Source: an uncultured Candidatus Binatia bacterium (GTDB taxonomy: Bacteria; Desulfobacterota; Binatia; Bin18). From it: 64,000 bases of DNA. The position numbers and the translations under genes are program-made. Positions 1,101 to 64,000 of this stretch are shown here, one piece after another. Under the pieces are notes generated by a model. It was not told the DNA's origin. It was given only the letters and a program-made list of their open reading frames with translations, and made no database searches. How positions within the stretch are numbered: the stretch's first letter is position 1; each line of letters opens with the position of its first letter. The DNA is taken from contig CBDBDK010000001.1 of NCBI GenBank assembly GCA_965203745.1, positions 1,955,328-2,019,327 on the forward strand, given 5' to 3'.

Positions 1101-1103
1101 GAT

Positions 1104-24018: not shown

Positions 24019-24081
24019 GGGGATAGTGTCTTCCCGCGACTGGTCATGTGAACAATCTATTCTAACCTGCTGTTTATACGC

Positions 24082-24843: not shown

Positions 24844-25621
24844 GCTCCTGACCGCCGCGGTCGCGCTTCCCCTTCTCATCTTCCTGATACACTCGGCGCC
24901 GGAATGGGGCTTTTCGAGTGCCATTCTGGTGCTGACTGGTGTCGGCCTATATGAATATTTCTCACTCACGCGAGCCCAATACTCACTCTCTCCGGTCATC
25001 GGCGGACTGTGGGGCATGCTTGTCGCACTCAGCATGCTATCGGGCGATGCTCGGCTCATCGGCGCTGCACTGACCCTTGGTTTTATGCTGGTTTTTATCC
25101 TGAATCTTCGAGATCGTCAGCCAGCACGAGGACTCCAGACAACGAGCCTCTGCGTACTTGGTGTGGTGTATATTGGGTTTCTTTTTCCACACTTACTGTG
25201 GATACACCGCGGCCCGGAAGGCGCGGGATGGATTTTTTTCATACTGCTTGTAGCCATGCTTGGAGACACCGGAGGATATGCCGTTGGACGAATATGGGGA
25301 AAACGGAAACTGCTGCCGCATATCAGCCCCAGCAAAACCATAGAGGGGAGTGTCGGATCAATAGGCGGGAACTGCGTCGCTGCCCTCGTTGCCTGGCAGT
25401 ATCTCCTGCCCAATCGCTCTGCGCTCGAATTAGTACTACTTGCGCTTCTGATGGGAGTGCTCGCCCAGTTGGGCGACCTGTGTGAGTCTGCCTTGAAGCG
25501 GGCCTGCGGCGCAAAAGACTCAGGCCGTCTCTTTCCCGGCCACGGCGGAGTGCTCGATCGTATCGATAGTTTACTTTTCCCCGGTGCCTTTATCTATTAC
25601 TATAATACGCTGTGGCACTAA
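24812..25621 (+). CDS. cdsA: phosphatidate cytidylyltransferase
   Basis: Polytopic protein with C-terminal CdsA motif (KRACGAKDSGRLFPGHGGVLDRIDS). TTG start at 24812 overlaps the uppS end. The exact start is uncertain. Confidence 0.8.
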   Translation: MRLSSNVLRTRLLTAAVALPLLIFLIHSAPEWGFSSAILVLTGVGLYEYFSLTRAQYSLSPVIGGLWGMLVALSMLSGDARLIGAALTLGFMLVFILNLRDRQPARGLQTTSLCVLGVVYIGFLFPHLLWIHRGPEGAGWIFFILLVAMLGDTGGYAVGRIWGKRKLLPHISPSKTIEGSVGSIGGNCVAALVAWQYLLPNRSALELVLLALLMGVLAQLGDLCESALKRACGAKDSGRLFPGHGGVLDRIDSLLFPGAFIYYYNTLWH

Positions 25622-48251: not shown

Positions 48252-48282
48252 ACAATCAAAGCCTCAACAAAGGAGGACTGTT

Positions 48283-49488
48283 ATGGCTGAACAACTCCTG
48301 TCAGGGATTAACGTCGTTGAGTGCGGCAATCTGGTTTCTGCCGCTTATACCGGCAAGCTGCTCGCCGACTTTGGTGCGGATGTGGTCAAAGTCGAAGAGT
48401 TGGGCGGTGACGTCTCCCGACAACGCGGCCCCTTTCCCGGCGATACCCCGCATGCCGAGAAGAGCGGTCTGTTCCTATACCTGAACGCCAATAAACAAGG
48501 CGTCACGCTGAATCTGCACGAACCCAAAGGGCAGGCGGTCTTGCAGAATTTATGTGCCCGGGCCGATATTCTGCTGCATAATTACAGCCCGCGCGAGATG
48601 CCCGAGGTCGGCCTGGATTACGAAAAACTGCGTCAGATCAATCCGGGCCTGATTATGACCTCGATTTCTTACTTTGGTCAGACCGGCCCGCACCGTGACT
48701 ATCACGGCTATGACCTGACGGCGAGTAACGCCGGAGGATGGGCGTTCATCAGCCCGGGTGCCTCCGATTACCCGGACCTGCCACCCCTCAAAGCGTTTGG
48801 CCATCAGACCGACTTTCAGGGCGGGGTGCACGCTGGCGTCGCAACGCTTGGCGCATATTACCATAAATGCCTGACGGGCGAAGGCCAGCACCTCGATGTC
48901 TCCGTCCAAGAGTGTATTGCTGCCATCCTGGAAATGAATTTTATGCACTACACCTATAGCGGTCTGGAAACATCGCGGCTGGGACGACGGTCCATCTATC
49001 CCTGGTGCATGCTCGACTGTAAAGACGGAAAACTCTTTGTGGTTTGTGTGGAAGAAGACCAGTGGCAGCGCTTTGTCGAGCTGATGGGCAACCCTGAATG
49101 GGCGACCCTGGAGATTTTTGCCGACCGCGTCGTCCGAGGGCAGAACTATGACGCCCTGATGCCCTTTCTTCAAGAGTTCGCCGCAGAGTGGACGGTTGCC
49201 GACCTGTATAAAGTCGGTCAAGAGCGCCGTATCTGTATGGCCCCGGTAAACACCATGTCAGACTTGATGGCCTCGGAGCATCTCAAGGCGCGTGAATTCT
49301 TTACGGAAATCAGTCATCAGGTCGCGGGCACGCTGCAATATCCGGGTGCCCCTTTTAAGGTGGAGGAGGTTGGCTATGCCGTGCGTCGTCCGGCGCCGCA
49401 GCTTGGCGAGCATAATAATGAGGTCTACGCCCGGATTGGATTCTCTCAGGCCGAGATCGATGAGCTGAAGCAGGGCGGGATTGTTTAA
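48283..49488 (+). CDS. family III CoA-transferase (CaiB/BaiF), paralog 2
   Basis: GINVVECGNLVSAAYTGKLLADFGADVVKVE. 401 aa. Confidence 0.8.
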   Translation: MAEQLLSGINVVECGNLVSAAYTGKLLADFGADVVKVEELGGDVSRQRGPFPGDTPHAEKSGLFLYLNANKQGVTLNLHEPKGQAVLQNLCARADILLHNYSPREMPEVGLDYEKLRQINPGLIMTSISYFGQTGPHRDYHGYDLTASNAGGWAFISPGASDYPDLPPLKAFGHQTDFQGGVHAGVATLGAYYHKCLTGEGQHLDVSVQECIAAILEMNFMHYTYSGLETSRLGRRSIYPWCMLDCKDGKLFVVCVEEDQWQRFVELMGNPEWATLEIFADRVVRGQNYDALMPFLQEFAAEWTVADLYKVGQERRICMAPVNTMSDLMASEHLKAREFFTEISHQVAGTLQYPGAPFKVEEVGYAVRRPAPQLGEHNNEVYARIGFSQAEIDELKQGGIV

Positions 49489-49514
49489 GGGAGCCGACCG
49501 CAAAGGAGAACGTC

Positions 49515-50732
49515 ATGGCACGACGACCGTTAGAAGGCATTCGCGTAACCGATTTTACCTGGGCCTGGGCAGGACCGTACTGTACGCTCCAAATGGCGCA
49601 TATGGGCGCGGAAGTGATTCGGATTGAGAGTGAAAAGCGTCCGTGCGTCACCCGTTTGATCCCGCCGTTTGCGGACAACGAACCTGGGCCGAACCGGGCC
49701 GGCTATTTCAACCAATACAGCCAGGGTAAGAAAAGCCTCCAGCTTGATCTGGCCCGGCCCGAGGCGTCTGAGATTGTCAAAAAACTCATTGCCAAGAGCG
49801 ATATTGTCGTGCAGAACTTCTCAACCGGGGCGATTAACCGCATGGGTTTTGGCTATGACACGCTCAAGGAACTCAAACCCGATATCATTATGATTTCAAT
49901 CTGCGGCTACGGGCAAACCGGTCCCGAACGCCACTATATGGGCTATGGGCCGGCTTCCGTTCCGTTGGCAGGAATCTCATCCTTGACCGGTTATCCAGGG
50001 GTTGGGCCGGCGGAGATCGGTATGTCGTATGGCGACCCGAACGCCGGCATCTTTGGTTCGTTTGCCGCCATGGCCGCGCTGGCCTATCGCCACCGCACCG
50101 GCAAGGGGATTCACGTTGACCTGGCATTATGGGAAGCCCTGCTCGTCCTGATGCCCGAAGGCATCATGGATTATATGATGAATCAGACCCAGCCTGAGCG
50201 CGACGGCAACCGGGATCGCTGGATGGCACCCCACGGCTGTTTTAAGTGTAAGGGCGACGCCGAGAAGTGGGTGACGATCGTGTGCGGTAGCGACGCGGAA
50301 TGGCAGGCCCTGTGTCAGGCCATCGGTCAACCGGAACTGGCCACGGATAAACGTTTTACCGATGCGGCAGCTCGGAAGGCGAACGAGGATGCGCTCGAAG
50401 AAATTATCACAGCCTGGACGAGCGAACGCGACCGCTGGGAGGTGACGGAGGTGCTGCAGAAAGCCGGCGTGGCTGCTTACCCGTCTCAGAGCAATAAAGA
50501 CTTGGCAACCAATCCGCATCTCGAAGAACGTGGCTATCTCGTGCAAAAAGAACATCCCGAATTCGGCAGACGCATCCACGCCGGCATCCCGTGGCAGATG
50601 AGCGGCTCTCCGTGCGAAGTGCAGGCCGCCGCCCCACAGCGTGGGCAACATACGGACTATGTGTTGCAGGAGCTTCTTGGCTATTCCGGCGACGAGGTGC
50701 AAAAGCTGCGAGACGAGCAGGTGTTGACCTAA
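49515..50732 (+). CDS. family III CoA-transferase (CaiB/BaiF), paralog 3
   Basis: GIRVTDFTWAWAGPYCTLQMAHMGAEVIRIE. 405 aa. Confidence 0.8.
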   Translation: MARRPLEGIRVTDFTWAWAGPYCTLQMAHMGAEVIRIESEKRPCVTRLIPPFADNEPGPNRAGYFNQYSQGKKSLQLDLARPEASEIVKKLIAKSDIVVQNFSTGAINRMGFGYDTLKELKPDIIMISICGYGQTGPERHYMGYGPASVPLAGISSLTGYPGVGPAEIGMSYGDPNAGIFGSFAAMAALAYRHRTGKGIHVDLALWEALLVLMPEGIMDYMMNQTQPERDGNRDRWMAPHGCFKCKGDAEKWVTIVCGSDAEWQALCQAIGQPELATDKRFTDAAARKANEDALEEIITAWTSERDRWEVTEVLQKAGVAAYPSQSNKDLATNPHLEERGYLVQKEHPEFGRRIHAGIPWQMSGSPCEVQAAAPQRGQHTDYVLQELLGYSGDEVQKLRDEQVLT

Positions 50733-50941
50733 CTCCGAGAGGGGAGGGTAGCCTGATTGCTGAACTGTGGGTGTAGGGCGGGTTGCGCTCGGGCCGACCT
50801 TCGCTCCATGAGAGCATGAGAAGAGTACCACCTTGCATCGGTGGTGGCTTGTGGCTAGGATCGCGGCAGTTCATATAACTGAACCTTCATTCAGCCATTC
50901 GGCCAAACTACTCTATAATTATTGAGAGAAGGGGACTCAGT

Positions 50942-52186
50942 ATGGCAGGCGCGTCACGTCAGGGTATGTTAGCTGGCTATAAAGTGCTGGACTTTACGCA
51001 GATTGTCGCCGGACCGACGACGACGCGCCTCCTGGCTGAAATGGGGGCTGAGGTCATTAAGGTTGAACAGGCTCCGAAAGGAGACCCGGCCCGCCTCAAC
51101 GGGATTCTGAAAAAAGGCCGGAGCGGCTATTTCATTCAGCACAATGTCTGCAAACAAAGCCTGTGTGTGAATCTCAAAACGGAGGAAGGGCGGGACATCG
51201 TACGCGGGCTCATTCCGCATATGGATGTGGTGGTCGAGAACTATAGTCCGGGTGCGATCAAACGGCTCGGTTTTGCCTATGAAGAACTGCAAGAGCTGAA
51301 CCCGCGTATCATCATGTGCTCGATCTCGGCCCTTGGTCAGACCGGCCCGCTGTCCCATGTGCCCGGCTATGATTTCATCGCCCAAGCGTATTCCGGCTTT
51401 AATGAAGTCACTGGCGAACGCGGCCGGGCGCCGGCCATGCCCCAGGCTGCGATTGGCGATGTGAGTACAGGAGTACATGCCTTCGGCGCGATTGCGTGTG
51501 CGCTGTTGCACCGTGAGCGGACAGGCGAAGGCCAGTATATCGACGTGTCGCTGCTCGATGCCTACATCCATTCGCACGACTTTACGATCCAGTCGCATAG
51601 CGCCTCGGGTGGCAAATTCGTCCCGACACGGAGTGGCGCTCACCATATGGGGCTGGCCCCGTGCGGTATTTTCCAGGCAAAAGATGGGTTCGTCGTCATC
51701 GTGGGTGCCCTGGACCATCAGTGGCAGGGCGTGGCGCGAACCATTGGACATCCGGAATTTGTGGAAGACCCGCGCTTCCGTACCAATCGGGATCGGGTCC
51801 ATCATAAAAAAGAACTCATCCAGGCTATTGAGGCCTGGCTCGACACCATGCCGAATCGGGAAGAGGCGGTCGCGGCTCTGCACCGTGAACGCGTGCCGGC
51901 CGCACCGGTTTTGACCATTCCGGAAGTGGTCAACCACCCCCATTTGCTTGAGCGGGAAGCCATCCGGCCGATACAGGATAAGGTGTTGGGTGATTTTGTT
52001 CTGCCTGGGTTTCCATTCCGATTTTCGAGCTCAGCTAGAACCGATGCCCCGTTTGAAGCGCCGGATTTGGGCGAACATAATGAGTCTGTCCTCCGCAATT
52101 ATCTGGCCTATACCGCTGACCAACTGGAGCGGTTAGCGCAGGACGGCATCCTTGTCAGCCGCCCAACTCCTGTAGAATACGAGTAA
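50942..52186 (+). CDS. family III CoA-transferase (CaiB/BaiF), paralog 4
   Basis: GYKVLDFTQIVAGPTTTRLLAEMGAEVIKVE. 414 aa. Preceded by a 209-nt spacer with a TATAAT-like element. Confidence 0.8.
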   Translation: MAGASRQGMLAGYKVLDFTQIVAGPTTTRLLAEMGAEVIKVEQAPKGDPARLNGILKKGRSGYFIQHNVCKQSLCVNLKTEEGRDIVRGLIPHMDVVVENYSPGAIKRLGFAYEELQELNPRIIMCSISALGQTGPLSHVPGYDFIAQAYSGFNEVTGERGRAPAMPQAAIGDVSTGVHAFGAIACALLHRERTGEGQYIDVSLLDAYIHSHDFTIQSHSASGGKFVPTRSGAHHMGLAPCGIFQAKDGFVVIVGALDHQWQGVARTIGHPEFVEDPRFRTNRDRVHHKKELIQAIEAWLDTMPNREEAVAALHRERVPAAPVLTIPEVVNHPHLLEREAIRPIQDKVLGDFVLPGFPFRFSSSARTDAPFEAPDLGEHNESVLRNYLAYTADQLERLAQDGILVSRPTPVEYE

Positions 52187-52199
52187 GGAAAGATATTTC

Positions 52200-53828
52200 A
52201 TGCACGGTAAACGCGGGTTCCGACCTGTAGTCAGTAGCGTCTTGGGTGGACTGTTACTCCTGGCGGTCTCGGCCAATATTTCTCCCTGTTACGGCTATTT
52301 CATGGACAAGCAGGTTGATAAGATCGTGAATGCCTGGTCACGCTTCGATCGTTTTCTGTCCACCTTTGATCCGGCCGGCCGCTACGTCCGCCAGCCCGTT
52401 GAACGGCAGGTCCCGGCCCTGACGTTCCGGGGCTTTCTCCGCCAGTGGTCCGATATCCAACTCTCGGGCGACCGCCGCGTCGGTAATCGACAGAAAGATT
52501 TCCGTTTTTCCCAGATGCAGAATCTGTTGGAATTGGAACTCCACTACCAAGTCTCACCCAATATCGAAATCACCAATATCAATAACTTCGTGTACGACAG
52601 CGTGTACAACTGGCAGGATTCTGCCGGTCTGTTTGCCCCCCGGACGAGCGAAAGCTTCCGCGCCTATCATAACTTCGAGCGTATCGTGCGCGAGTTATAT
52701 ATCAGCTATCGCACCCATAACCTCGACGTAGTCCTGGGCAAGCAGCAAATCGCCTGGGGCAAAATGGACGGCCAGTTTATTGACGTCATCAACGGCATGG
52801 ATAGACGCGAGTCCGTCCAGCTTGAGGCGAGCGACTACGAGTGGCGCCGGCTGCCGGCCTGGATGGCAAACGTGACCTATTTCTTTGGGGCAAATTCTCT
52901 CAACTTCCTGTGGATTCCGAACTTTGAGCAGGACCGCAATCCGGTTCCCGGCTCGCCGTGGTACTCGCCTCTGATTCCGCCTAGGGATACGGACACGAAA
53001 GCGATCCTGGACGGCCGGCAAGACGCGACCGGGGATCAGTTCAGAGAGACGAAGCGGCCGTCTACGGGCGACTTCGGGGACCATCAATACGGCCTGCGGC
53101 TTGATGTGTCCATGGAACCCCTCACCTGGGGTCTCATCTATTATTACGCCTGGAATAAAAACCCAACGTCCTTCATTGTTGACCGCGATATTGATGCTGC
53201 CGGAGACCCCTATCTGATCTTTCAGCCGCGTTTTACCCGCTTGCACCATCTGGGTATCACCGCCGACTATGCTTCCGCCCTCTCGAACATGCCGCTTGTC
53301 GGCGAACTGCCGATTGTGCTGCGGGTTGAGGGTTTGTGGACCAAAGACGTTCCCTTCGCCGACTTTGACCATCAGGATCGCGCACGGGACGGATATCTCA
53401 ACTCTGGGATCATTCGGCGTGACACCTTGCGGGCCGCGATTGCGCTGGAGTTCGCCTTTCCCGGTAATACCTCCGCGATTATACAGCCTTCCCTGTTGTA
53501 TACCTTTGACTGGCGTCGCAATCTCGGCGGTGGCTTTGGCGGAGGAATCGGAGATGAAATGAGCCTCCTTCCGGTTATGTTTATTGGACGTCCGTTTCGC
53601 TTCACCCGTGACCGTTTGCGCTTGGAGTTGACCGTCGTTCCAGTGATCAGTCTGCCGCAGAAGAAGTGGCAGGGCATAAAAACGAAATTTGTTTCGAGCT
53701 ATCGCTTTTCCCAATTTGTTACCGGTCGCCTCATTTATACGGCGTTCAGTAGCGGTGACCGGACTGACCTGTACGGTCAATATAATAAATGGGACAATAT
53801 CGGCTGGGAACTGAGCTACGAGTTCTGA
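52200..53828 (+). CDS. putative outer-membrane protein, DUF1302-like (signal peptide, C-terminal aromatic residue)
   Basis: 542 aa, signal peptide, a beta-rich low-hydrophobicity body, and the C-terminus ...WELSYEF (terminal Phe, an OMP signature). The family assignment is from memory of DUF1302/DUF1329 pairing. Confidence 0.5.
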   Translation: MHGKRGFRPVVSSVLGGLLLLAVSANISPCYGYFMDKQVDKIVNAWSRFDRFLSTFDPAGRYVRQPVERQVPALTFRGFLRQWSDIQLSGDRRVGNRQKDFRFSQMQNLLELELHYQVSPNIEITNINNFVYDSVYNWQDSAGLFAPRTSESFRAYHNFERIVRELYISYRTHNLDVVLGKQQIAWGKMDGQFIDVINGMDRRESVQLEASDYEWRRLPAWMANVTYFFGANSLNFLWIPNFEQDRNPVPGSPWYSPLIPPRDTDTKAILDGRQDATGDQFRETKRPSTGDFGDHQYGLRLDVSMEPLTWGLIYYYAWNKNPTSFIVDRDIDAAGDPYLIFQPRFTRLHHLGITADYASALSNMPLVGELPIVLRVEGLWTKDVPFADFDHQDRARDGYLNSGIIRRDTLRAAIALEFAFPGNTSAIIQPSLLYTFDWRRNLGGGFGGGIGDEMSLLPVMFIGRPFRFTRDRLRLELTVVPVISLPQKKWQGIKTKFVSSYRFSQFVTGRLIYTAFSSGDRTDLYGQYNKWDNIGWELSYEF

Positions 53829-53834
53829 CCGATT

Positions 53835-55187
53835 ATGAACGGGCGCTTTTTTTTCCTGACGATCTGGGCCTTGCTGTCCAGTCTGGCGTTCCCGGTCGCC
53901 GGGGCTGCCGAGCAGAACGGCGGTCCGCGCAAGACCTGGAAGACAGTAGAAGAACTGTCCGAGGCGGAAAAATCGCGCATTGATTTCCGGGTCGATACTC
54001 CCCGAGATGCCACGCTTCCGTATCTCCCGGCAGAGGCCTATCCCTTTCAGCCGCCCTATACCGCGGAAGAGATGGGCTATCGGGCCATGGAATTCCCCCA
54101 CATCGCCCGCTGGTCGCACGCCATGGCCGATGTGTTCGGTGCCATTACCAGCAACGGCTTCCTCGATGAAGGCATCACGTTGGCCTATAGCCACTATATG
54201 CCGGACGAGTATGGGGTGGCCGGCCAGCTCAGCGTGAGGCCGGGGGACGCCTATTTTCGAATGGTCTTCTTCTATACCTATCCGCCCGAGAACCAGGGTC
54301 TTCAGGACCTGTGGATCTTGAGACGGACGGACCAGGAGGAAACGACCAAACTGGACAATTTCATCTACAGTCCAAACCTGCGCCGCGTGCGCCGCCAGCC
54401 TCAGCCCCGCCGGGACGCGCGCTTCCCCAATAATGTCCAGACCTTTGACGATGTGGTAGGCCGCGACGCCTGGGAATTCTCGTGGCGCCTGCTGGGCACG
54501 GATGTGCTGTACGAGACGGTGCGTTTTCCCACCACCCGCCCAACGGTCACCCTGGCCAAGCCCGACGGGAGTTTTTATACGGTCCCGTCGGACCAGATTA
54601 AAATGCTGGGCGACACCTATTCGCACTATACGGCGGACGGCGGCGTGGCCTGTTATGTGGTTGAGGCGACTCGGCGGGAAGACTGGCTGCCCCATTACCG
54701 TATGAGCCGGTTGATATACTGGTTCGATCAGCACGGCTTCTATCCGCTGCGTATCGAGCAGTACGACAATGATAATCAACTGCGGATGATTGAGGTCCGA
54801 AACGCCTCTCTGGCCAACCCGGCCCTGGAAGAACGCGGCTATGCCGGCTTATTCACGCTCTATTACGATCTCGCCCTCGACCTGATGAGCTATAGCGCCC
54901 ACGACGCCCACTGGGTGAAGGAGTGGGCTCCAGAAGACCGAGAGACGATGTTTGAGCCCGACTTCATGCGTCGCAGTTGGCTCAAGTATCCACTCAAATC
55001 CCAGTCCCTGGTGTATTCTCCGGAGAAATTCTTCCTCCGCCCACACCTGTATCCAGATAAGTTTCCGCAAGACCGAAACGTTACTATCCCCACAGAGCTA
55101 GCCCAGCGCTACCGTTTGCAAGAAGAAGCCGGACATCTCGTCTTCGACAGTTCCTCTCCGCTCATTGAGGTCAAGGCGCCAGAGTAA
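53835..55187 (+). CDS. DUF1329-like periplasmic/OM-associated protein, paralog 1
   Basis: 450 aa with a signal peptide. Strongly similar to the next ORF (RKTWKTVEELSEAEKSRIDFRVDTPRDATLPYLPAEAYPFQPPYTAEEMGYRAMEFPH). Confidence 0.5.
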   Translation: MNGRFFFLTIWALLSSLAFPVAGAAEQNGGPRKTWKTVEELSEAEKSRIDFRVDTPRDATLPYLPAEAYPFQPPYTAEEMGYRAMEFPHIARWSHAMADVFGAITSNGFLDEGITLAYSHYMPDEYGVAGQLSVRPGDAYFRMVFFYTYPPENQGLQDLWILRRTDQEETTKLDNFIYSPNLRRVRRQPQPRRDARFPNNVQTFDDVVGRDAWEFSWRLLGTDVLYETVRFPTTRPTVTLAKPDGSFYTVPSDQIKMLGDTYSHYTADGGVACYVVEATRREDWLPHYRMSRLIYWFDQHGFYPLRIEQYDNDNQLRMIEVRNASLANPALEERGYAGLFTLYYDLALDLMSYSAHDAHWVKEWAPEDRETMFEPDFMRRSWLKYPLKSQSLVYSPEKFFLRPHLYPDKFPQDRNVTIPTELAQRYRLQEEAGHLVFDSSSPLIEVKAPE

Positions 55188-55195
55188 GGACCTCT

Positions 55196-56542
55196 ATGGC
55201 TCTCCGCGCGCAACAGTTCTTGTGGCTCGTTGTTTTCTGCCTGCTGTCTTCCGGTAGCATAGGGGTCGCGATTGTGGCGGCAGACCAAAGCAGTCTGATC
55301 TCACGGAAAACCTGGAAAACGGTTGCCGAGCTCACGGCCGAAGAAAAGAATGCGCTGGACCTCCGTAGTGATACGCCGCGGGATGCAAACGTCCCCTATC
55401 TGCCGGCCGAGTCCTTTCCGTTTCAACTCCCTTATACGGCTGAAGAAATGGCACTGCGAGCCATGGAGTTCCCACACTCGCCATTCTGGGACTGTGTCCT
55501 GATCGATATGGCTTTCTCGGTGACGAACTCGGGATTTATGGATCAGCGTGTGACGCTTATTCCCATCCTGTATTTTCCCGAGAATGGGTTCGGAGAACAT
55601 CTGTATGCCGCCCAGCCCGGCCAGGAAATCTATCGCTGGCTCTCCCAAAGCGTCTCTCCACCCGAACGGTATGGGAATCAGACCTTATGGATAGGCTATC
55701 GGACGGATCAAACGTTCCGGACGAAAATAGACATGTTTGCCTATTCCCCATCGCTCCGGCGAATCCGTCGTCAGCCCCAACCGCGCCGGGAAGACCGCTT
55801 ACCCAATAGCGCGGCAACGTTCGATAATTTGATCGGACGGGACGCCTGGGAATTCTCGTGGCGCATTCTCGGGACGGATATTTTGTATCAGACGGTGCGT
55901 TTTCCCAAGACGCGCCAAACCGCCGTGCTGACCGACGAAAACGGGCGGTATGTTGAGGTTGCCGCCAAAGACCTCTCCCTCATGGGTAAAGAATATCCGC
56001 TCTATACCGCAGACGGTGGAGTCAAATGCTTTGTGCTTGAAGCCATACCAAAGGCCGAATGGCTACGTGACTACTACGCCCATAAGCTGATTTACTGGGT
56101 TGACCAATATGCATTCTTTCCCTTGCGGATGGAAGAATATGACCGACAGGGGCAGTTGAGTTTTGTGAATACCCGGATTGCGACCCTGGCCAATCCAGAA
56201 CTTCAGGAACATGGCTATGCGGTCCAGTTTGACCTGTGGTGGGACGTGTCTATTGATTTCCTGTCCGCTTCGATCCACGGTTTTGTCCCGCAAACTTGGT
56301 CAGAGGAAGACAAAAAGATCTTCTTCAGCTCTGGATTTATGCGCCGCGAATGGTTCCTGGTGCCGCCCAAGGGTTTGATGAGTCTCAACTCGCCGGACGA
56401 ATTCTATCTGCGACCTCCACTCGAAGAGGAAAAATTCCCGGCCTCGCGCTCTATCGATTTGCCACCTGAAGTGCGGGCCTTGATTGAGGCCCAGGAGCGC
56501 GAGGGCAAGCTGGTATTCGAGGAAGGGCGGGGAGACGGCTAA
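55196..56542 (+). CDS. DUF1329-like periplasmic/OM-associated protein, paralog 2
   Basis: 448 aa with a signal peptide. Co-linear paralog of the previous ORF (RKTWKTVAELTAEEKNALDLRSDTPRDANVPYLPAESFPFQLPYTAEEMALRAMEFPH). Confidence 0.5.
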   Translation: MALRAQQFLWLVVFCLLSSGSIGVAIVAADQSSLISRKTWKTVAELTAEEKNALDLRSDTPRDANVPYLPAESFPFQLPYTAEEMALRAMEFPHSPFWDCVLIDMAFSVTNSGFMDQRVTLIPILYFPENGFGEHLYAAQPGQEIYRWLSQSVSPPERYGNQTLWIGYRTDQTFRTKIDMFAYSPSLRRIRRQPQPRREDRLPNSAATFDNLIGRDAWEFSWRILGTDILYQTVRFPKTRQTAVLTDENGRYVEVAAKDLSLMGKEYPLYTADGGVKCFVLEAIPKAEWLRDYYAHKLIYWVDQYAFFPLRMEEYDRQGQLSFVNTRIATLANPELQEHGYAVQFDLWWDVSIDFLSASIHGFVPQTWSEEDKKIFFSSGFMRREWFLVPPKGLMSLNSPDEFYLRPPLEEEKFPASRSIDLPPEVRALIEAQEREGKLVFEEGRGDG

Positions 56543-56563: not shown

Positions 56564-57679
56564 TTACTGCGTCTCGTGCGTGGCCTGCCAGGCGCGGCCC
56601 ATCGAGTCCGCGGCCAGAATGGCGTCGGCAACCATGTCGGGCTGCACGTCAAACGGCTCGTTATGGATGGTTTCGCCTTCGGCGGTCGCCCGCGTTGCTA
56701 CTTGTTCAAGCACGTCCTCAGGGAGCTCGGTGAGCCCGATCTCGGTCAGGGTGATAGGCAGGCCGACCGCGGATGAAAACTCCAGCACCGGATCGATAAC
56801 CGAGCGTGGCTGCCCTTCGAGCACCAACTGGGCCATCAGGCCGTAGGCGACTTTTTCCCCGTGATAATACGGGTGGGTGAGCGGGGCTGCGGTGAGGCCA
56901 TTGTGAATGGCATGGGCTGCGGCAAGACCCGAGGACTCGAAGCCTAAACCCGACAGCAGGGTGTTGGCTTCGACCACCCGCTCCAGGGCAGGATTGACAA
57001 CATTTCGTTCCACGGCCCGTTTGGCATCCGGGCCGTCTTCAACCAGGATATTGCAGCACAGCTCTGCCAGCTTTTCGGCGCTGCGCGTTGAGGCTCCACC
57101 ACGCATATTCTGGACGTGGCCGGCAACACAGGTTTTAGCCTCGAACCACGTAGCCAGCGCATCTCCCATCCCTGCCACAAGCAGTCTGGCCGGAGCTTGG
57201 GCGACGACATAGGTGTCCACAACAACCAAATCAGGGTTTTTTCGATAAAAGCGATATTCCTGGAACACTCCCTCGGGGGTATAGATCACCGACAGCGCGC
57301 TGCACGGTGCGTCGCTTGAAGCAATGCTTGGACAGTTAACGACGGGAAGGTCGAGGTCGTCCGCCGCTGCACGGGCCGCATCCAATACCTTACCGCCGCC
57401 CGCTCCAATAATAACCTGAGCCTTATTCTCCCGTGCTGTTTCTTTGATACGTTGGATTTCGGGATAGGAGCATTCCCCTCCGAACTGGTGGACGACGTGG
57501 GTGATGCCGGCATCGTTCAAATGTTTCTGCCAGACTTCTGAGAGCAGCCGAATGGCACTTTTCCCGGCAACGATACAGGCAGGCCCCTGTAGACCGATGC
57601 GCTGCATTTCCGTTCCTAGGGCTGCGGTGGCGTGTTTCCCCTGTACATAGTGGCTTGGGGCTGAAAAAACTGAGAGCAT
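56564..57679 (-). CDS. iron-containing alcohol dehydrogenase family (glycerol dehydrogenase GldA-like)
   Basis: GGGKVLD (GGGS-type) NAD motif and the metal-ligand region of group III ADH/GldA. 371 aa. Confidence 0.8.
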   Translation of the reverse strand: MLSVFSAPSHYVQGKHATAALGTEMQRIGLQGPACIVAGKSAIRLLSEVWQKHLNDAGITHVVHQFGGECSYPEIQRIKETARENKAQVIIGAGGGKVLDAARAAADDLDLPVVNCPSIASSDAPCSALSVIYTPEGVFQEYRFYRKNPDLVVVDTYVVAQAPARLLVAGMGDALATWFEAKTCVAGHVQNMRGGASTRSAEKLAELCCNILVEDGPDAKRAVERNVVNPALERVVEANTLLSGLGFESSGLAAAHAIHNGLTAAPLTHPYYHGEKVAYGLMAQLVLEGQPRSVIDPVLEFSSAVGLPITLTEIGLTELPEDVLEQVATRATAEGETIHNEPFDVQPDMVADAILAADSMGRAWQATHETQ

Positions 57680-57839
57680 ACATCCCTCCTTACCAAGTGC
57701 TGTTCCCGCAGATAGAGCAGGGTGAGAGCTTTTGCAGTATAAACTGAGACGTGTTGACGCGGCAAGCAGGAGAGGGCCAGTGGGACAAGCGGAAGACGCT
57801 ACGGTTCGGCAGAGAACGCTGCTTCTCTCAATCTCATCC

Positions 57840-57862
57840 GATATATCAGGTTCGGATATATC
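57840..57862. repeat. two copies of the palindrome GATATATC 15 bp apart, upstream of an extended -10 (TGCTATAAT 57882-57890)
   Basis: GATATATC at 57840-57847 and 57855-57862. TATAAT at 57885-57890 lies 7 nt before the ATG at 57898. Confidence 0.5.
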
Positions 57863-57897
57863 TTCCCGCTTTTGGTTCGAGTGCTATAATTGCCGCC

Positions 57898-59847
57898 ATG
57901 GCACGTACCCCTAGCGACCTTCCCGAAAATAAGGACGAAAGGGAAATTTTCTATCTACTGAAAGGGCGCTTGGACGACGAGTGGGTCTTCTGGCATGAAC
58001 CGGACCTGAAACGCTCCTACGACGACTCCAATCCCTATCGCCCGGACTTCATCCTGCTGCATCCCAGACGCGGGCTGTTTGTGCTGGAGGTCAAAGGATG
58101 GAATGCCTCCAGTATCCTGGACGTCAAGAAGAAGCAGCCTGATGACTTCGATAAAGGCAAGCAGATCGACAAGGTGCTGTACAAATTCGGCACCGGCGAC
58201 GAATGGGTTACCGCCCCTTTTGACCAGTTGAGGAATTACACCAGTTGGGTCAGGAATAGGTTGAAAGAACTGCCCCAGGTTAGCGGCAAGAAGGCCAACA
58301 AGCTGTTCAAGGGGGCGGTGTGTTTCGTACGGATTGCCAAAGACGATATCAGCGCAGGCGACCTTCTCAACTCCCATCTGGGTGAGTTACGCAAGGGCGT
58401 CCTGACCGGTAAGAGGAAGAGCGAGCAGGGATACTACGAGGGGGATTACCGACGCTGGAGAGCGCATCCCAACGAACTGCAACAAAGTCTTGCTGCCTCG
58501 CCGGATGAAGACCTACAACTCGATAAAATCTACGTCCAGATTCGGCAGATCATCCATCCAGAGTCCGTCATATCGATATTCTCTCCATCAGAGGCCGACA
58601 AGACAGACTCCAGCGAGCAGCGCCCGGAACCGGCAAGCTGTGTAGAGACGGATACCGAACCCCTCCCATGCATTCTTGACCTAGACCAGGAAGAAGTAGC
58701 CAAGGGGCACATCGGTCGAGGGCATCGTATTCTTTTCGGCGTCGCCGGTTCCGGTAAGACCGTAATCCTGATCGCCCGCGCCCGTTATCAGGCAATGCGT
58801 CACCCGGAACAGCAAATCCTTGTGCTGTGCTATAACAGGACGCTTTTCTGCTACATTGACGATGTCCTGAAGGCTCACCCGAACATTGACGTAAACACTT
58901 TTCATTCTTGGGCTCAGTCCGAATTCTCGAACTATTGGGACTTCACCGAAGACGAACGCGACAAGAATCTGCTGATACATCTGGAGCGGAAAGGGGTCAA
59001 GAAACAGTACGACTGTATCCTGATCGATGAATCCCAGGACTGGGATATCGCTTGGTTCAAGGCGATTCTGCATGCGGCCAAAGATGCGGAGGAGGGGGAT
59101 ATGCTGATCGTCGGCGATGGCAGCCAGTCCATCTACGCCAGGCAGCAGGGCTTTACCTGGAAGGCTTGTGGCATCAAGGCCAGGGGGCGGGTGATCAATC
59201 GTCGAGGCGGCAAAGTCGATACCTTCAGGAACTATCGTAACACGCCCGAAATCGTCGCACTGGCCACTTCCTTCGCCCAAGGTCTCATCTCGCAAAAGAA
59301 CACTACCTCCGAGGACGGTATGATGTCCCTATTGCCCGAGGCGAAGGACTGCGGCAAGCGGCCGAGCCACATTCTGCCGGTTATCTGCCGAGCCAAGAGC
59401 GAAGGGACCGAACTGGCCCTCGTCCATAAAGAAATACGGCACCTCCTAGAAAAGAAGCTGGTGACCCGACGCAGTGACATCGCCGTCATTTACCCTCGTG
59501 GTGACCGTGGGAAACGGCAGGACACACTGCGTAAGTTGACCAACGACCTGAACCGGCTTTACCGGACGGACTGGATCAGAGGAGGCCGGGTGAGGAATCA
59601 AGATAAAATACTAGTTGACACCATCAAAATATCCAATGTCTATCAAATCAAGGGACTGGAGTTTAAGGTGTGCTTCGTGGTCTTGGCAAACGATTTCTAC
59701 GACGAAGAGGGAGAACTTCTGTATGTGGCCTTGACCCGAGCCCAGGAGCGTCTCTACGTGACCCATCATAGGGACACGTTCCTGACTGGGAAACTGACTT
59801 CCGATATGACCCTCTATACGGATCAATTTCTTTTCTCTATGGCTTGA
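57898..59847 (+). CDS. NERD-domain (PD-(D/E)xK nuclease) / UvrD-like SF1 helicase fusion protein (Nhi-like candidate defence protein)
   Basis: NERD motif RPDFILLHPRRGLFVLEVKGW at the N-terminus. SF1 motifs follow: I GVAGSGKT, II IDESQD, III VGDGSQSIY, V KGLEFKVCFVV, VI VALTRAQERLYV. Confidence 0.75.
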   Translation: MARTPSDLPENKDEREIFYLLKGRLDDEWVFWHEPDLKRSYDDSNPYRPDFILLHPRRGLFVLEVKGWNASSILDVKKKQPDDFDKGKQIDKVLYKFGTGDEWVTAPFDQLRNYTSWVRNRLKELPQVSGKKANKLFKGAVCFVRIAKDDISAGDLLNSHLGELRKGVLTGKRKSEQGYYEGDYRRWRAHPNELQQSLAASPDEDLQLDKIYVQIRQIIHPESVISIFSPSEADKTDSSEQRPEPASCVETDTEPLPCILDLDQEEVAKGHIGRGHRILFGVAGSGKTVILIARARYQAMRHPEQQILVLCYNRTLFCYIDDVLKAHPNIDVNTFHSWAQSEFSNYWDFTEDERDKNLLIHLERKGVKKQYDCILIDESQDWDIAWFKAILHAAKDAEEGDMLIVGDGSQSIYARQQGFTWKACGIKARGRVINRRGGKVDTFRNYRNTPEIVALATSFAQGLISQKNTTSEDGMMSLLPEAKDCGKRPSHILPVICRAKSEGTELALVHKEIRHLLEKKLVTRRSDIAVIYPRGDRGKRQDTLRKLTNDLNRLYRTDWIRGGRVRNQDKILVDTIKISNVYQIKGLEFKVCFVVLANDFYDEEGELLYVALTRAQERLYVTHHRDTFLTGKLTSDMTLYTDQFLFSMA

Positions 59848-59974
59848 GATTGAATAGCAGCCCGCACTCGCTTCAGTGTGGACTCCCGATCTCCGTCCTC
59901 AATGGTCGGAAGCCGCGAGAGAAAGAGGGGGCAGGGGTCAGGGTGGAGAGACCCTAGCTTGCGTGCACTATACT

Positions 59975-60826
59975 ATGCGTCGGTTCCAAGGCTATGTGCT
60001 TTGTGGTGTTGTCCTGACTCTCTGGGCCGCAGGGTGTTCTGAATGGCCGGGTGAACCACCGAAGTTGAGCCAGCACGAATATAGCCATGTCCTCAGCACT
60101 GGGCCGTGCCCGCTCGGTGAGCGGAGCGGTCCGGGAGGTATGAGCGACGACGAGCAGACTGAACACGGGATTAAATATACGGTTCGGACGCCCGCCAACT
60201 ACAATCTAGGCATTCTTCACCCGCTCCTCATGGTCTATGCCCCTGCCGGCTCCAGTCGTTTTCGATCCGAGCATCTGACCGACCTGACTTTTGCGGCAAC
60301 GACGGCTGGCTTTGTCGTTGCCTATGCTGACTCACGCCGCCTTTCGCTCGAAGTCATTCTCGAACTCGGGACGATCCCGCGGCTTATTGCCAAAAAATGG
60401 TGCGTTGATGAGCGGCGGGTCTACCTGACCGGCCATTCTGACGGCGGAACAGTGGCCCTCGCTCTGGCCCTGTTGGACGAGACCCGCCACATCCCGGCTG
60501 CGGTGGCGCCAAGTGCCGCCGGGTTCAGGCGGGCCGACCTCGAAACCTTCTCGTGTCCCGAAACATTGTCTGCTCTGATTATGCACAGTGCCAACGACCA
60601 TCTTTTCCCCGGCTACGGGGCCGAGACGGCTTCTTGGTTGGCTGCGTGTAATCAGTGTCAGGCCGGTTTGATTGAGAAAGATAAAAATGGCTGTGGGGCC
60701 TACTCGGGATGCACAGCGCAAGGCAAAACTCTATACTGCGAAGGAACTGGTACCCATCGGCAGTGGCCTCCGCTCAATACGGCCCTCCTGTCGTTTTTTA
60801 TCGATATTGACCGCTCCCTTCACTAA
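59975..60826 (+). CDS. putative esterase, PHB-depolymerase (LpqC-like) alpha/beta-hydrolase family, lipoprotein-type signal
   Basis: The signal ends LWAAGC. Nucleophile elbow LTGHSDGG. ~280 aa. Confidence 0.5.
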   Translation: MRRFQGYVLCGVVLTLWAAGCSEWPGEPPKLSQHEYSHVLSTGPCPLGERSGPGGMSDDEQTEHGIKYTVRTPANYNLGILHPLLMVYAPAGSSRFRSEHLTDLTFAATTAGFVVAYADSRRLSLEVILELGTIPRLIAKKWCVDERRVYLTGHSDGGTVALALALLDETRHIPAAVAPSAAGFRRADLETFSCPETLSALIMHSANDHLFPGYGAETASWLAACNQCQAGLIEKDKNGCGAYSGCTAQGKTLYCEGTGTHRQWPPLNTALLSFFIDIDRSLH

Positions 60827-61539: not shown

Positions 61540-62388
61540 ATGGCTCAGGCGCAAGCAGTACAAAATGCACCAAAAGGTTCCGGCGATGGTTCCATGACAA
61601 CTGGCAATCCCGCCAATCCGACTGATTGGTCAGTCGGCTGGCATCCTCTCTTCTGGGGGTGCGGGCTGATCATGCTGGCGAATGTCTTTTTCTGGTACTG
61701 GAACTACGCCTTTATGTTCACTGCCGGACTGAACTCAGCAAGCGCTGAATTCACGATGTATTACTGGACGCTGTTCTGGGGTGAATTGATTGTCTTAGGC
61801 GTATTCAGCGGAGTATGGTTGGGCTGGCTCATCCGGAATGGCCGGGCCATTCAAGGACAGGAATGCTCACCCGCCGAAGAAACGCGCCGGATTGCGATTT
61901 TGTGGAGCCTCGTTGGCGCGACGAGTCTGGCTATCTATCTGATGGCCAGCTTCTGGCCGAACTGGGATGGGTCGTGGCACCAAACCATGGTTCGTGACAC
62001 GGCATTCACCCCGACCCACATCCCGATGTTTTATTTTTTCTTCCCCCTCTCGGTTGTGTTGGCCGTCGGGACCTATATCTACGGGCGGTTCCATATCCCC
62101 GCGCTGTACGGAAAAGACAAGGGATTTCCCTGGTCGTTCTTTCTGCTGATCAGCGCCTGTGTACTCGAATGCATGGCAGTCGCTGCCAATGAGTGGGGCC
62201 ATAGCCTGTGGATATCTGAAGAAATCTTCTCTGTTCCGTTTCACTGGCCGTTTGTGATTTACGGCTGGCTTGCGGCGGGTATGTTTGCGGTGTGGGGCGA
62301 GACGCTAGTGCGCATGTTCGAGATAGAGAAGATCGAAGAGGATACCAACCCGGAAGCCTCGCTTGAGTCGCCGATCGCCGCCGATTAA
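61540..62388 (+). CDS. xmoC: copper membrane monooxygenase subunit C (PmoC/AmoC family)
   Basis: Matches PmoC/AmoC conserved blocks: SWHQTMVRDTAFTPTHI (cf. GTWHQTIVRDTDFTPSHI), NEWGHSLWISEEIF (cf. NEWGHTFWFMEELF), VPFHWPFVIYGW. GAGGAGG RBS. Confidence 0.85.
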   Translation: MAQAQAVQNAPKGSGDGSMTTGNPANPTDWSVGWHPLFWGCGLIMLANVFFWYWNYAFMFTAGLNSASAEFTMYYWTLFWGELIVLGVFSGVWLGWLIRNGRAIQGQECSPAEETRRIAILWSLVGATSLAIYLMASFWPNWDGSWHQTMVRDTAFTPTHIPMFYFFFPLSVVLAVGTYIYGRFHIPALYGKDKGFPWSFFLLISACVLECMAVAANEWGHSLWISEEIFSVPFHWPFVIYGWLAAGMFAVWGETLVRMFEIEKIEEDTNPEASLESPIAAD

Positions 62389-62451
62389 TGCAGCGGCGTG
62401 GGCGTGGATCGCTAAACATATCGAAAATCCTCGTGCAGAGAGGAAGGACGC

Positions 62452-63255
62452 ATGGCGACGGAAACCACCACCGTAACCGACATCGCAGATGCGGCGGAAC
62501 GGCAGAGGCGGCTTGAACTCAAAGAACTGCTCAACAAGAAATATAAGTGGGTTGATTGGAAGTGGGATCTTGTTTTCTGGACCACGGCAGTTTTCGTGGT
62601 AGCCGGTGCCGCTGACATCACCAAGCAGTTGTTTGCCGGTGACTGGGATTTCTGGACGGATTGGAAAGACCCACAGTGGTGGCCAGTAGTCACGGCCTTT
62701 GCCACCATCATCATCCCCTCGACGCTGCAATACATTCAGTGGACGGCTTGGCGCTTTCCGACTGGTGCGACCTACACCGCGTGTTGTTTGTTTTTTGCGG
62801 CCTGGGTTGGGCGGTATTTCCAGTGGGACCTCGCGGCGACCTACCCTATGAACTTCGTGTGGCCTGCCTCCGTCGTTTGCGCCGGGATTTTGATGGACTG
62901 GACCTTAATGAAAACCAAGAGCTTCATCCTCACCTCGTTGATCGGGGCTCATGTGTGGGCGATTGCGGTGTGGGCCTATAATTACGTTCCCTTGGCTGCC
63001 TTTCTCCAGCCGGCCCATTTTATGGATCATGTGGTGACGGTTGCTGATGTTCAGGGCATTGCCTATATCCGCTCTCAAACCCCGGAATACCTTCGGCTGA
63101 TTGAACGCGGCGCGTTGCGGAGTTTCCTGGGTGAGACGCAATACGTTTCGCTGGCCTTTGGCGGAACGGCGGCTTTTGCTGGCTACTGGATCGGTCAATT
63201 TATTGGCCGGTATCTGGCAGTGTGGCCGATTCGGCGCTATCTGAAAACTGTATGA
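62452..63255 (+). CDS. xmoA: copper membrane monooxygenase subunit A (PmoA/AmoA family)
   Basis: AGDWDFWTDWKDPQWWPVVT (cf. AmoA [20 protein letters not shown]). Also FPTGAT, YPMNFVWP, LMDWTL, QTPEYLRLIERGALRSF. Confidence 0.9.
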   Translation: MATETTTVTDIADAAERQRRLELKELLNKKYKWVDWKWDLVFWTTAVFVVAGAADITKQLFAGDWDFWTDWKDPQWWPVVTAFATIIIPSTLQYIQWTAWRFPTGATYTACCLFFAAWVGRYFQWDLAATYPMNFVWPASVVCAGILMDWTLMKTKSFILTSLIGAHVWAIAVWAYNYVPLAAFLQPAHFMDHVVTVADVQGIAYIRSQTPEYLRLIERGALRSFLGETQYVSLAFGGTAAFAGYWIGQFIGRYLAVWPIRRYLKTV

Positions 63256-63274
63256 GACGAATATGAGGTGCGGT

Positions 63275-63616
63275 ATGTCTTTCGAACCTCAGCAGCTCGC
63301 CGGATACGGAAGAGTCTGCTCTGTGCTCATGGCTCTTCTTGCCGGCCTGTCTCTGTTTCCTTCCCCCGTGTATGCGCACGGTATGAATATCTCTGAAATA
63401 GCCCCGCCCGTCATGACCGCAGGCGTTTTGGCGTTTGTGTGTTACTGGCTGGTGGTTTTGTGGCCGGCGTCGAAGGGTGTGGAGACGGACGGACGCGGAT
63501 CGCCGGAAACGGACCGGATTATTCGCATCAAGCGCAAGCCCCGCCTGCGCGTCATAGAAACCAAGTCTCAGCTCCCGGACGAACAGCCCGAACCCAGGAG
63601 AGCGGCGGATGGCTAA
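63275..63616 (+). CDS. small membrane protein encoded between CuMMO A and B subunit genes
   Basis: Signal peptide ends VYA|HG. One TM helix (VMTAGVLAFVCYWLVVLWPA). Basic/Pro-rich C-terminal tail. An alternative start is at 63263. Confidence 0.4.
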   Translation: MSFEPQQLAGYGRVCSVLMALLAGLSLFPSPVYAHGMNISEIAPPVMTAGVLAFVCYWLVVLWPASKGVETDGRGSPETDRIIRIKRKPRLRVIETKSQLPDEQPEPRRAADG

Positions 63617-63626
63617 GCGATTCGTG

Positions 63627-64000
63627 ACTGGCAGTGAAAGAGTAAGCGTGTCCTCCAATAGATATAAGATGCTGGGCACGTTTACTCTTTTTGGCGTGCT
63701 ATTCGTACTGGCCGTTGTTGCTGCCAATACGCCGCACGCCTTTGCTCACGGTGAGGCTGCCGACGAACCGTTTTTGAAAAACATGACCACGGCTTTCTTC
63801 AATGTCAGCGTGTCGCCGACTGAAATTGAGGTTGGAGAGCCGGTCAAGGTTACGGGGTCGGTCAAGATTCTCGAAACCTGGCCGCATACGCTGGAAACAC
63901 CGGAAATCGCTTCTATTATGCCGGTCGTTCCCGGACCAGTCTTTGTGCTCAAAGAGCGTTTTGTCAATGGAACGGCTGCGATCGGATCGTTCTTTGCCCA
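63627..64000 (+). CDS. xmoB: copper membrane monooxygenase subunit B (PmoB/AmoB family), 5' part (runs off window)
   Basis: Signal peptide ends AFA|HGEAADEPFL (cf. PmoB mature N-terminus HGEKSQAAF). WPHTLETPE and PGPVFVLKERFVNG (cf. PGPVFIRKESYIGG). Open to the window end. Confidence 0.75.

Follow-up and report, generated by a model that had tools for sequence, protein, structure and literature searches.

The closest described relatives of the gene analysed here combine a nuclease with a helicase or a related NTPase. Nhi of S. epidermidis (SERP2475; Bari et al. 2022) and the Nhi-like proteins (Millman et al. 2022) carry a PD-(D/E)xK nuclease joined to a DUF2075 helicase (PF09848), the structural relatives of which belong to superfamily 1B (SF1B; Dda, Upf1, and Dna2). 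Gabija is composed of two genes, one for the UvrD-type NTPase GajB and the other for the nuclease GajA of TOPRIM/OLD type; Hachiman pairs HamB, a DExH helicase of superfamily 2 (SF2), with HamA (DUF1837); and the NERD-helicase associated with DRT/UG34 (RTasNERD-Hel) works beside a reverse transcriptase. Another group is C3a187, which corresponds to cluster 187 of Shah et al. (2019), with Dole_0738 as the representative, and was proposed with three members as a candidate accessory of type III CRISPR. NERD and UvrD were also listed among putative CRISPR auxiliary genes in a survey of 2023. Here we describe a gene at positions 57898-59847 of a stretch of 64,000 nucleotides from an uncultured Candidatus Binatia bacterium (contig CBDBDK010000001.1, positions 1,955,328 to 2,019,327; hereafter the window), which encodes a NERD nuclease fused to a UvrD-type helicase. 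The gene was found to be solitary and dispensable in its lineage, and its product is a candidate conflict enzyme that might act against phages or plasmids.

The features of the gene and of the encoded protein are as follows.

57898..59847, plus strand: open reading frame (ORF) of the NERD-UvrD-like nuclease-helicase (ORF list, Pfam, PADLOC, conservation of the N-terminus, AlphaFold2 model)
57928..58326, plus strand: NERD/PD-(D/E)xK nuclease domain, residues 11-143 (Pfam)
57997-57999, 58045-58047, 58087-58089, and 58093-58095, plus strand: nuclease catalytic codons E34, D50, E64, and K66, in this order
58333..58677, plus strand: helical linker, residues 146-260 (profile of the predicted local distance difference test (pLDDT), secondary structure, conserved columns)
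58681..59772, plus strand: UvrD/Rep-type helicase core of superfamily 1A (SF1A), residues 262-625 (Pfam, motif positions, PDB matches, Foldseek)
58681-58701, 58738-58761, 58825-58845, and 59020-59043, plus strand: helicase motifs Q, I (Walker A), Ia, and II (DESQD), in this order
59110-59136, 59224-59244, 59647-59664, and 59725-59760, plus strand: helicase motifs III (GDGSQSIY), IV (YR), V, and VI, in this order

In the ORF list of the window, the frame at 57898-59847 is intact and encodes 649 amino acid residues followed by a stop codon. Since M1-A2 is conserved at a level of at least 90% across 48 aligned homologs, with the orthologs beginning at the same residue, ATG at 57898 was taken as the true start; an alternative, longer GTG start is located in frame at 57751. 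By Pfam, the NERD domain (PF08378) was detected at residues 11-143 with 36.4 bits against a cutoff of 22.1, and AAA_19, UvrD-helicase, UvrD_C, and UvrD_C_2 were detected over residues 262-625, each exceeding its cutoff, indicating that the fusion of a NERD nuclease with a UvrD-like helicase of superfamily 1 (SF1), as claimed in the original prediction from the letters alone, is real. The two nuclease motifs quoted there, DFILL and LEVKGW, are located at residues 48-54 (as RPDFILL) and 63-68, respectively. The residues E34, D50, E64, and K66 of the nuclease are intact and (nearly) invariant across the family. The SF1A helicase motif set, which had been described as complete, was confirmed with all eight motifs: Q (residues 262-268), I (281-288), Ia (310-316), II (375-382), III (405-413), IV (443-449), V (584-589), and VI (610-621). 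The sequences of motif III (GDGSQSIY) and motif IV (YR) are those of the UvrD type. The architecture and the catalytic residues are thereby established.

The linker between the two enzymatic halves carries conserved H220-P221-E222 and terminates in a disordered stretch at about residues 225-258. The AlphaFold2 model of the protein gave a pLDDT of 86 and a predicted template modelling score (pTM) of 0.87. Sequence matches in PDB were obtained with UvrD and AddA only, AddA being one of three matches. By Foldseek with the whole chain, PcrA, UvrD, and Rep were matched and SLFN11 came top, all with a template modelling (TM) score of about 0.4; as the scores to SLFN11 and UvrD are equally low, the whole-chain comparison does not separate SF1A from SF1B.

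The best match among the PADLOC profiles was PDLC01087, 'C3a187, NERD+UvrD' (6.1e-65), which aligned residues 13-633 with profile positions 18-553 of 559. The nuclease half and the helicase half each matched this profile separately, and the N-terminal half matched only C3a187 and RTasNERD-Hel even at E <= 10. The likeness to C3a187 is thus a full-length profile match, with NERD followed by a UvrD-type helicase in a single protein in both cases. The difference is that the cluster was defined from three genes adjoining type III cas cassettes, with no experimental function; cas genes were found neither in the window nor in the 10 kb to each side, the search being one for genes and not for CRISPR arrays. 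NERD+UvrD is therefore already catalogued as a candidate family, uncharacterised by experiment, and the gene is an additional member. With its family membership established, the gene is, as judged from the profile matches, an intact member of the widespread NERD+UvrD family.

This family includes 3,312 clusters of 50% identity at E <= 1e-30, mostly of 600-650 residues and matched from end to end, and the members are named in databases as '3'-5' exonuclease', 'NERD domain-containing protein', or 'AAA family ATPase'. A NERD domain plus a UvrD-type helicase in one polypeptide is the architecture common to the homologs listed. The phyletic spread is patchy over both Bacteria and Archaea, including Methanoregula, Verrucomicrobiota, Planctomycetota, cyanobacteria, Clostridium, Rhodanobacteraceae, and Burkholderiales. 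We collected 80 family loci from GTDB species representatives and clustered six ORFs on each side. No conserved partner was observed in these 80 loci; recurring neighbours were confined to Rhodanobacteraceae-type loci, which form one family-level group, and are unannotated. The lack of a partner in the 80 loci indicates that the gene is a one-gene unit, and supports its earlier description as stand-alone.

The other known systems differ from this protein in the helicase, in the nuclease, or in the partner gene. The original prediction had named GajB, HamB, and the PADLOC models for comparison and had itself favoured an Nhi-like system. Nhi and Nhi-like proteins resemble the present protein in that each is a single protein of similar length, has a PD-(D/E)xK nuclease at the N-terminus and a helicase of SF1, lacks a partner gene, and follows the same proposed logic of coupling a motor to a nuclease. 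The helicase of Nhi is, however, DUF2075, whereas that of this protein is UvrD/Rep SF1A. PF09848 gave 18.4 bits, below its cutoff of 24, and covered only profile positions 8-89 of 354, in the P-loop region, so that the N-terminal PD-(D/E)xK nuclease of Nhi is present but its DUF2075 helicase is not. In addition, the C-terminal glyoxalase-like domain of Nhi is absent from this protein, and no family named Nhi was included among the PADLOC matches listed for it. Membership in Nhi or Nhi-like families is ruled out by the helicase type, the UvrD models passing their cutoffs and PF09848 falling below; a nuclease and SF1-helicase architecture by itself does not make a protein Nhi, and the Nhi-like label has to be withdrawn.

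The hidden Markov model (HMM) of GajB gave partial matches, with 6.7e-16 for the helicase half and 6.1e-15 for the whole protein, over the region of motifs II-IV (for example, positions 159-255 of 502). Gabija is alike in combining a UvrD-type NTPase with a nuclease, but two genes are needed, the nuclease GajA is not of PD-(D/E)xK type, and no GajA-like gene was detected near the locus or among the window genes. The partial GajB matches and the absence of the partner gene together rule out Gabija membership. For Hachiman, neither HamA nor HamB models were found among the PADLOC matches listed for the protein or among the window genes, and membership was rejected as the helicase here is of SF1 UvrD type. 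RTasNERD-Hel, which shares an N-terminal NERD and a C-terminal helicase, gave a partial HMM match, at 7.8e-19 with the whole protein and at 6.2e-08 when the NERD part was taken by itself. No reverse transcriptase domain was found in the window, and membership among the DRT-associated NERD-helicases is ruled out by the lack of an adjoining reverse transcriptase and the partial nature of the match. Can2/Card1-type CRISPR ancillary nucleases and other PD-(D/E)xK defence nucleases were compared for the nuclease domain only, with 8-12% identity; Can2/Card1 nucleases are fused to CARF domains that sense cyclic oligoadenylate (cOA), whereas the nuclease described here is fused to a helicase.

We then compared the locus among Candidatus Binatia relatives, for which the following flanking features serve as reference.

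56564..57679, minus strand: iron-dependent alcohol/glycerol dehydrogenase (Fe-ADH; PF00465), divergent left flank; anchor for synteny and empty sites, not part of the system
57800..60018, no strand: 2.2-kb segment absent from the relatives L114 and L116 (blastn breakpoints)
59972..60826, plus strand: predicted lipoprotein of alpha/beta-hydrolase type (AXE1 at 23.7 bits), co-directional right flank

Three other genomes carry orthologs, with 79, 72, and 67% identity, at exactly the same site, flanked by the Fe-ADH gene and a monooxygenase cluster. Identity of the products of the flanking genes is 84-99%, with 92-99% for those encoding enzymes and 95-97% for Fe-ADH. The numbers of nonsynonymous (dN) and synonymous (dS) substitutions per site were estimated by the Nei-Gojobori method for three genome pairs. 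The dS of the gene was 0.38, 0.59, and 0.50, and that of flanking genes about 0.2-0.6 (with one outlier of 1.17). Equality of dS between the gene and its flanks indicates codivergence with the neighbours, and rules out recent horizontal transfer or allelic replacement; the sequence comparison thus indicates that the gene has been inherited vertically at one chromosomal site. In contrast, the dN/dS ratio (omega) was 0.33, 0.28, and 0.42 for the gene versus 0.01-0.10 for the enzyme-coding flanks, or roughly 3-30 times that of the neighbours with about tenfold being typical. The ratio stayed below 1 in every domain, helicase 1A being the most constrained (0.14-0.34) and the linker showing the highest values (up to 0.7).

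Empty sites were identified by a metagenome scan anchored on the Fe-ADH gene. In L114 and L116, Fe-ADH abuts the downstream lipoprotein gene, and the nuclease-helicase gene is absent at the orthologous site, which is covered by 8-15 kb of contig in each case, so that another copy farther away in these two genomes is conceivable. By blastn, the homology breaks at 57799/60019 in L114 and at 57805/60020 in L116, with 57-62 bp in between. A neighbour-joining tree of 3,624 flank positions placed L114 as the sister of the window genome with 100% bootstrap, L116 within the gene-carrying clade, and L007 at the base; the downstream gene past its first 50 residues follows the same tree. With dS equal in the gene and its flanks, the most parsimonious interpretation is that the common ancestor already had the gene, and that two losses, or replacement by an empty allele, followed. 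A third type of allele was found at L007:10001-11755 and L008:10001-11755, where residues 22-86 of the ortholog are deleted in frame, in the same way in these two independent assemblies. This deletion removes E34, D50, E64, and K66, and the remaining 584 codons are open.

The empty sites in the nested L114 and L116, together with the loss of the nuclease core in L007 and L008, indicate that the gene is dispensable and weakly constrained, and is not a housekeeping gene. Housekeeping identity as UvrD, PcrA, or Rep is ruled out by the absence of the gene from L114 and L116 at the orthologous site and also by the NCBIfam equivalog scores, which were far below the cutoffs (39 versus 911 for PcrA, 27 versus 1144 for UvrD, and 23 versus 951 for Rep). 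The gene is a solitary, dispensable accessory gene in the Candidatus Binatia lineage. What the present analysis adds to the catalogued family is the series of occupied, empty, and nuclease-deleted alleles, by which the accessory status is demonstrated; with the genomes otherwise collinear, the Binatia locus represents a natural experiment.

For base composition and codon usage, the 59 gene calls of the window (58 besides the nuclease-helicase gene) were taken as the baseline. The G+C content (GC) of the gene was 53.7% against a gene mean of 56.5% (standard deviation 2.5, z = -1.2), 8 of the 58 other genes being lower, and the GC at third codon positions (GC3) was 66.6% against 63.2% (z = +0.8). 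The lower GC is attributable to a protein rich in Lys/Asp and poor in Ala/Gly/Pro, but not to synonymous sites. As neither GC nor GC3 deviates, the GC contrast that had been taken as a sign of foreign origin disappears upon quantitative measurement. The excess of AGG/AGA reported at the same time was reproduced: these codons account for 14 of 50 Arg codons (28%) compared with 9.1% in the other 58 genes (Fisher p = 1.7e-4), and the gene is the strongest codon-usage outlier among the 59 (z = 5.9). The bias toward AGG/AGA persists in the orthologs at 32-39%. Horizontal acquisition therefore retains the atypical codons in its favour, but lacks a GC anomaly and was not recent, as noted above from dS in the three genome pairs. 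Conserved synteny, which the original prediction had set against its own interpretation, was indeed found in four genomes; yet the gene is missing in two nested relatives, and its nuclease core in a third, so that it is not a housekeeping gene. As for the gene order described earlier, the Fe-ADH gene upstream is divergent as stated, but the downstream genes (59972-60826 and amoCAB) lie on the same strand and are not convergent. The earlier observation is thus partly confirmed, and its interpretation partly supported. For annotation, the lesson is that GC says little about foreign origin in this case, whereas codon usage, dN/dS, and the comparison with empty sites are informative. Three further codon-usage outliers rich in AGA/AGG were noted in the window, the ORFs at 798-1139 (plus strand, 50% of Arg codons), 17144-17599 (plus strand, 40%), and 23719-25059 (minus strand, 31%); none gave a Pfam match, and they may be accessory genes or mis-called ORFs.

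UvrD/Rep/PcrA-type motors are driven by ATP and translocate 3'->5' on single-stranded DNA. The helicase of the present protein may load on single-stranded DNA or on DNA ends of invading or replicating foreign DNA, and, if it resembles the UvrD-type motors of its family, would translocate 3'->5' on the single strand in an ATP-dependent manner. By this movement DNA would be fed to the NERD active site, for which DNA is the substrate expected from family resemblance, and be cleaved there, so that foreign or aberrant DNA would be degraded processively or in an end-dependent manner. Judging from the sequence comparisons, we estimate at roughly 55% the probability that the gene encodes a stand-alone nucleic-acid-targeting conflict enzyme, either anti-phage or anti-plasmid. 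Defence is favoured over accessory repair because of the dispensability, the rapid protein evolution, and the patchy and plasmid-borne distribution, and also because of the defence-type structural relatives of the nuclease and the enrichment of defence genes in the neighbourhoods of family members elsewhere. We infer by analogy that such an enzyme would be a functional analogue of Nhi, Gabija, and Hachiman on a different helicase lineage.

Genes near the family members elsewhere were then considered. For 150 immediate neighbours at 45 diverse loci, PADLOC matches were counted from the 25 top families listed, so that the count is semi-quantitative. The matches listed included Cas1, type I and type IV restriction endonucleases, DndF, DpdF (twice), DarG, PsyrT, PD-T7-1, and HNH. 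Among 150 neighbours of Fe-ADH genes taken as a control, the best 25 of 73 matched families all came from two kinase-like proteins, so that defence genes are commoner beside the family members than in the control. Association with CRISPR-cas is represented by one Cas1 among the matches listed for the 150 neighbours, and a type III association was not found at the window locus. A homolog on a Euhalothece plasmid is located beside other UvrD-like genes, kinases, and VapC, with cas1-cas2 about 6 kb away. Homologs were also found on E. coli and Vibrio plasmids, the latter being conjugative, and homologs on conjugative plasmids adjoin recombinase, integrase, and partition genes. About 10 provirus homologs were detected in IMG/VR, mostly near the ends of the retrieved regions.

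Several observations weigh against a defence role. Most of the 150 neighbours are unrelated metabolic genes, and defence genes are a minority of roughly 10% on the semi-quantitative count. The 64-kb window contains no defence island, with generic PADLOC matches only. No match was obtained among 50,697 phage records of INPHARED. In the literature searched, no experiment on any member of the family was found, no paper characterising a NERD-UvrD defence protein came to light, and nothing relevant was obtained for STM2767. The polarity of the helicase and the substrate of the nuclease are both read solely from family resemblance. Moreover, the fast evolution, the loss, and the deletion are compatible with any accessory gene under weak selection, one for a redundant repair enzyme among them.

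A wider proposal, which we hold tentatively and at somewhat less than even odds, is that NERD+UvrD, with more than 3,000 clusters, is a bona fide single-protein immune system on an SF1A motor. It would represent an independent evolutionary solution parallel to Nhi. In the present uncultured lineage of methylotrophs/alkane oxidisers it would have been kept for a long time as a polymorphism of presence and absence, located at a fixed site of the core genome and not in a defence island. If this is true, the loss of the nuclease core in L007 and L008, where the helicase ORF stays at omega < 1, hints at a nuclease-independent activity. Should the family be defensive, the catalogue gains a compact nuclease-helicase system of one gene, with a UvrD-type motor and thousands of members; if it is not, the protein is an ordinary accessory enzyme of repair type.

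Among the alternatives, the one that survives best is an accessory enzyme of DNA repair or recombination, which would act on ends, flaps, or stalled forks as a compact analogue of AddA/RecB or Dna2 with an N-terminal nuclease and without a defence role; on balance we regard it as unlikely. AddA/RecB and Dna2 are similar in that a single chain combines an SF1 motor with a PD-(D/E)xK nuclease. In AddA/RecB, however, the nuclease is C-terminal, and these proteins are far larger core repair enzymes that function in complexes. The restriction of PDB sequence matches to UvrD and AddA, and the partial NCBIfam matches to PcrA, HelD, AddA, RecB, and UvrD, agree with such an enzyme, whereas all the equivalog scores of repair helicases stayed far under their cutoffs. 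The setting also agrees with a repair enzyme: the gene is inherited vertically in a core-genome region without defence neighbours, and homologs are kept on 112 records of the Ralstonia megaplasmid (chromid). The nearest relatives outside Binatia, with about 40% identity, are gammaproteobacterial (Pseudohongiella and a relative; L009:7168-9829 and L010:9573-9776), and this paralog group is surrounded by housekeeping genes, such as those for endonuclease III and RNase T, with fragments of toxin-antitoxin systems (PIN, ParD-like, and HicB-like) next to it. The position of the homolog is shifted by two genes between L009 and L010, suggesting that the site is a small variable islet. Against a repair enzyme stand the absence of the gene from the sister genome of the window and from another nested relative, the deletion of the nuclease core in a third lineage, the dN/dS of about tenfold that of the neighbours, the patchy distribution including plasmids and proviruses, and the neighbourhoods elsewhere with restriction-modification, Cas, Dnd, Dpd, and toxin-antitoxin genes.

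A conflict enzyme of the host has further to be distinguished from the cargo or remnant of a mobile element, that is, a selfish single-gene cassette in which the nuclease-helicase serves the maintenance or transfer of the element itself. The clean presence/absence of 2.2 kb, with the same breakpoints in two genomes, the atypical codon usage retained in all orthologs, and the homologs found beside the recombinase, integrase, and partition genes of conjugative plasmids or at the ends of provirus calls would be expected of such a cassette. However, no integrase, transposase, tRNA target, or terminal inverted repeat was found in or next to the segment, the inverted repeats there being only at chance level, and relaxase and replication-initiator domains are absent from the protein by Pfam. 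A degenerate direct repeat flanks the segment (57756-57811 versus 59909-59967), but its similarity is marginal, with 1.75% of 2,000 shuffles as high for the comparison against the left flank, and 7.6% of shuffles were as high when the repeat was compared against the empty site. Since the gene and its flanks agree in dS, there was no movement between these lineages since their split. Taken together, a cassette of this kind is improbable.

Much less probable still is a true Nhi or Nhi-like member that works as Nhi, with a bipolar helicase and a nuclease sensing phage replication intermediates or single-stranded DNA-binding protein (SSB). In its favour are the same domain order in about 600-650 residues, the naming of NERD as an Nhi-like nuclease domain in a review, and SLFN11, a eukaryotic relative of DUF2075 type, as the top match in Foldseek. 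The TM scores to SLFN11 and UvrD are, however, equally low, motifs III and IV are of UvrD type, PF09848 matched below its cutoff where the UvrD-family models passed, and no Nhi-named family was listed by PADLOC, the N-terminal half being matched only by C3a187 and RTasNERD-Hel.

The idea that the gene is linked in function with the copper membrane monooxygenase cluster beside it, perhaps as an operon regulator or maintenance factor, draws on a position directly upstream of the amoCAB-like cluster that is conserved in four genomes, in three of which the stop codon of the gene lies 22-47 nt from the next ATG, but is effectively refuted by the empty-site genomes L114 and L116, which keep the neighbouring genes without the helicase gene (amoC/amoA being visible on L116 only, as the L114 contig ends earlier), as well as by the more distant L119, L122, and L172 with Fe-ADH beside the cluster and no such gene, and by the lack of any homolog linked to such operons outside the clade.

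The gene regarded here as a candidate conflict enzyme is preceded by one promoter-like element on the plus strand.

57882..57890, plus strand: perfect extended -10-like element, TGCTATAAT, ending 7 nt before ATG (read from sequence)

No Shine-Dalgarno sequence precedes ATG 57898, and the element TGCTATAAT suggests a possible promoter of a leaderless mRNA, although it is not conserved in the orthologous upstream regions. By consensus scan, no -35/-10 pair was detected on the plus strand; four promoter-like sites were found against 1.6 expected, every one on the minus strand. Terminator-like sites were not above the shuffle expectation, and no Rfam element was detected in the 2.2-kb segment. The segment at 57800-60018 is composed of about 98 bp of upstream sequence, the whole gene, a spacer of 124 bp, and the first 16 or so codons of the next gene. 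The gene at 59972-60826 is not a partner, because it is present with or without the helicase gene, as in the empty loci L114 and L116. Between 59940 and 60018, its upstream region and the first 16 or so codons, which correspond to a signal peptide, differ by haplotype: the protein begins with MR[RQ]F in helicase-carrying genomes and with MSR[LI] in the two empty genomes.

Metabolic and housekeeping functions account for the remaining 58 genes of the window, including those for ribosomal protein S2, triosephosphate isomerase (TIM), glyceraldehyde-3-phosphate dehydrogenase (GAPDH), LepA, four CoA-transferases, DUF1302/DUF1329 proteins, and the amoCAB-like cluster. The copper membrane monooxygenase operon, located at 61540-64000 and continuing in L001:13644-21913, contains amoC, amoA, a small ORF, and amoB, and a multicopper oxidase and a pyrroloquinoline quinone (PQQ) dehydrogenase follow amoB. 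Clusters of this type in Binatota have already been described (PMC8262859). The region at 47022-56542 contains four tandem paralogs of CoA-transferase family III and, after them, a DUF1302 gene and two genes for DUF1329 proteins. This block is collinear in all related genomes, with a single copy of DUF1329 in L005. In L116, a group II intron (L116:9080-12515; MKWU01000040.1) splits the ortholog of the second DUF1329 gene, and the intron ORF (L116:9384-11060) carries RVT_N, RVT_1, GIIM, and HNH domains.

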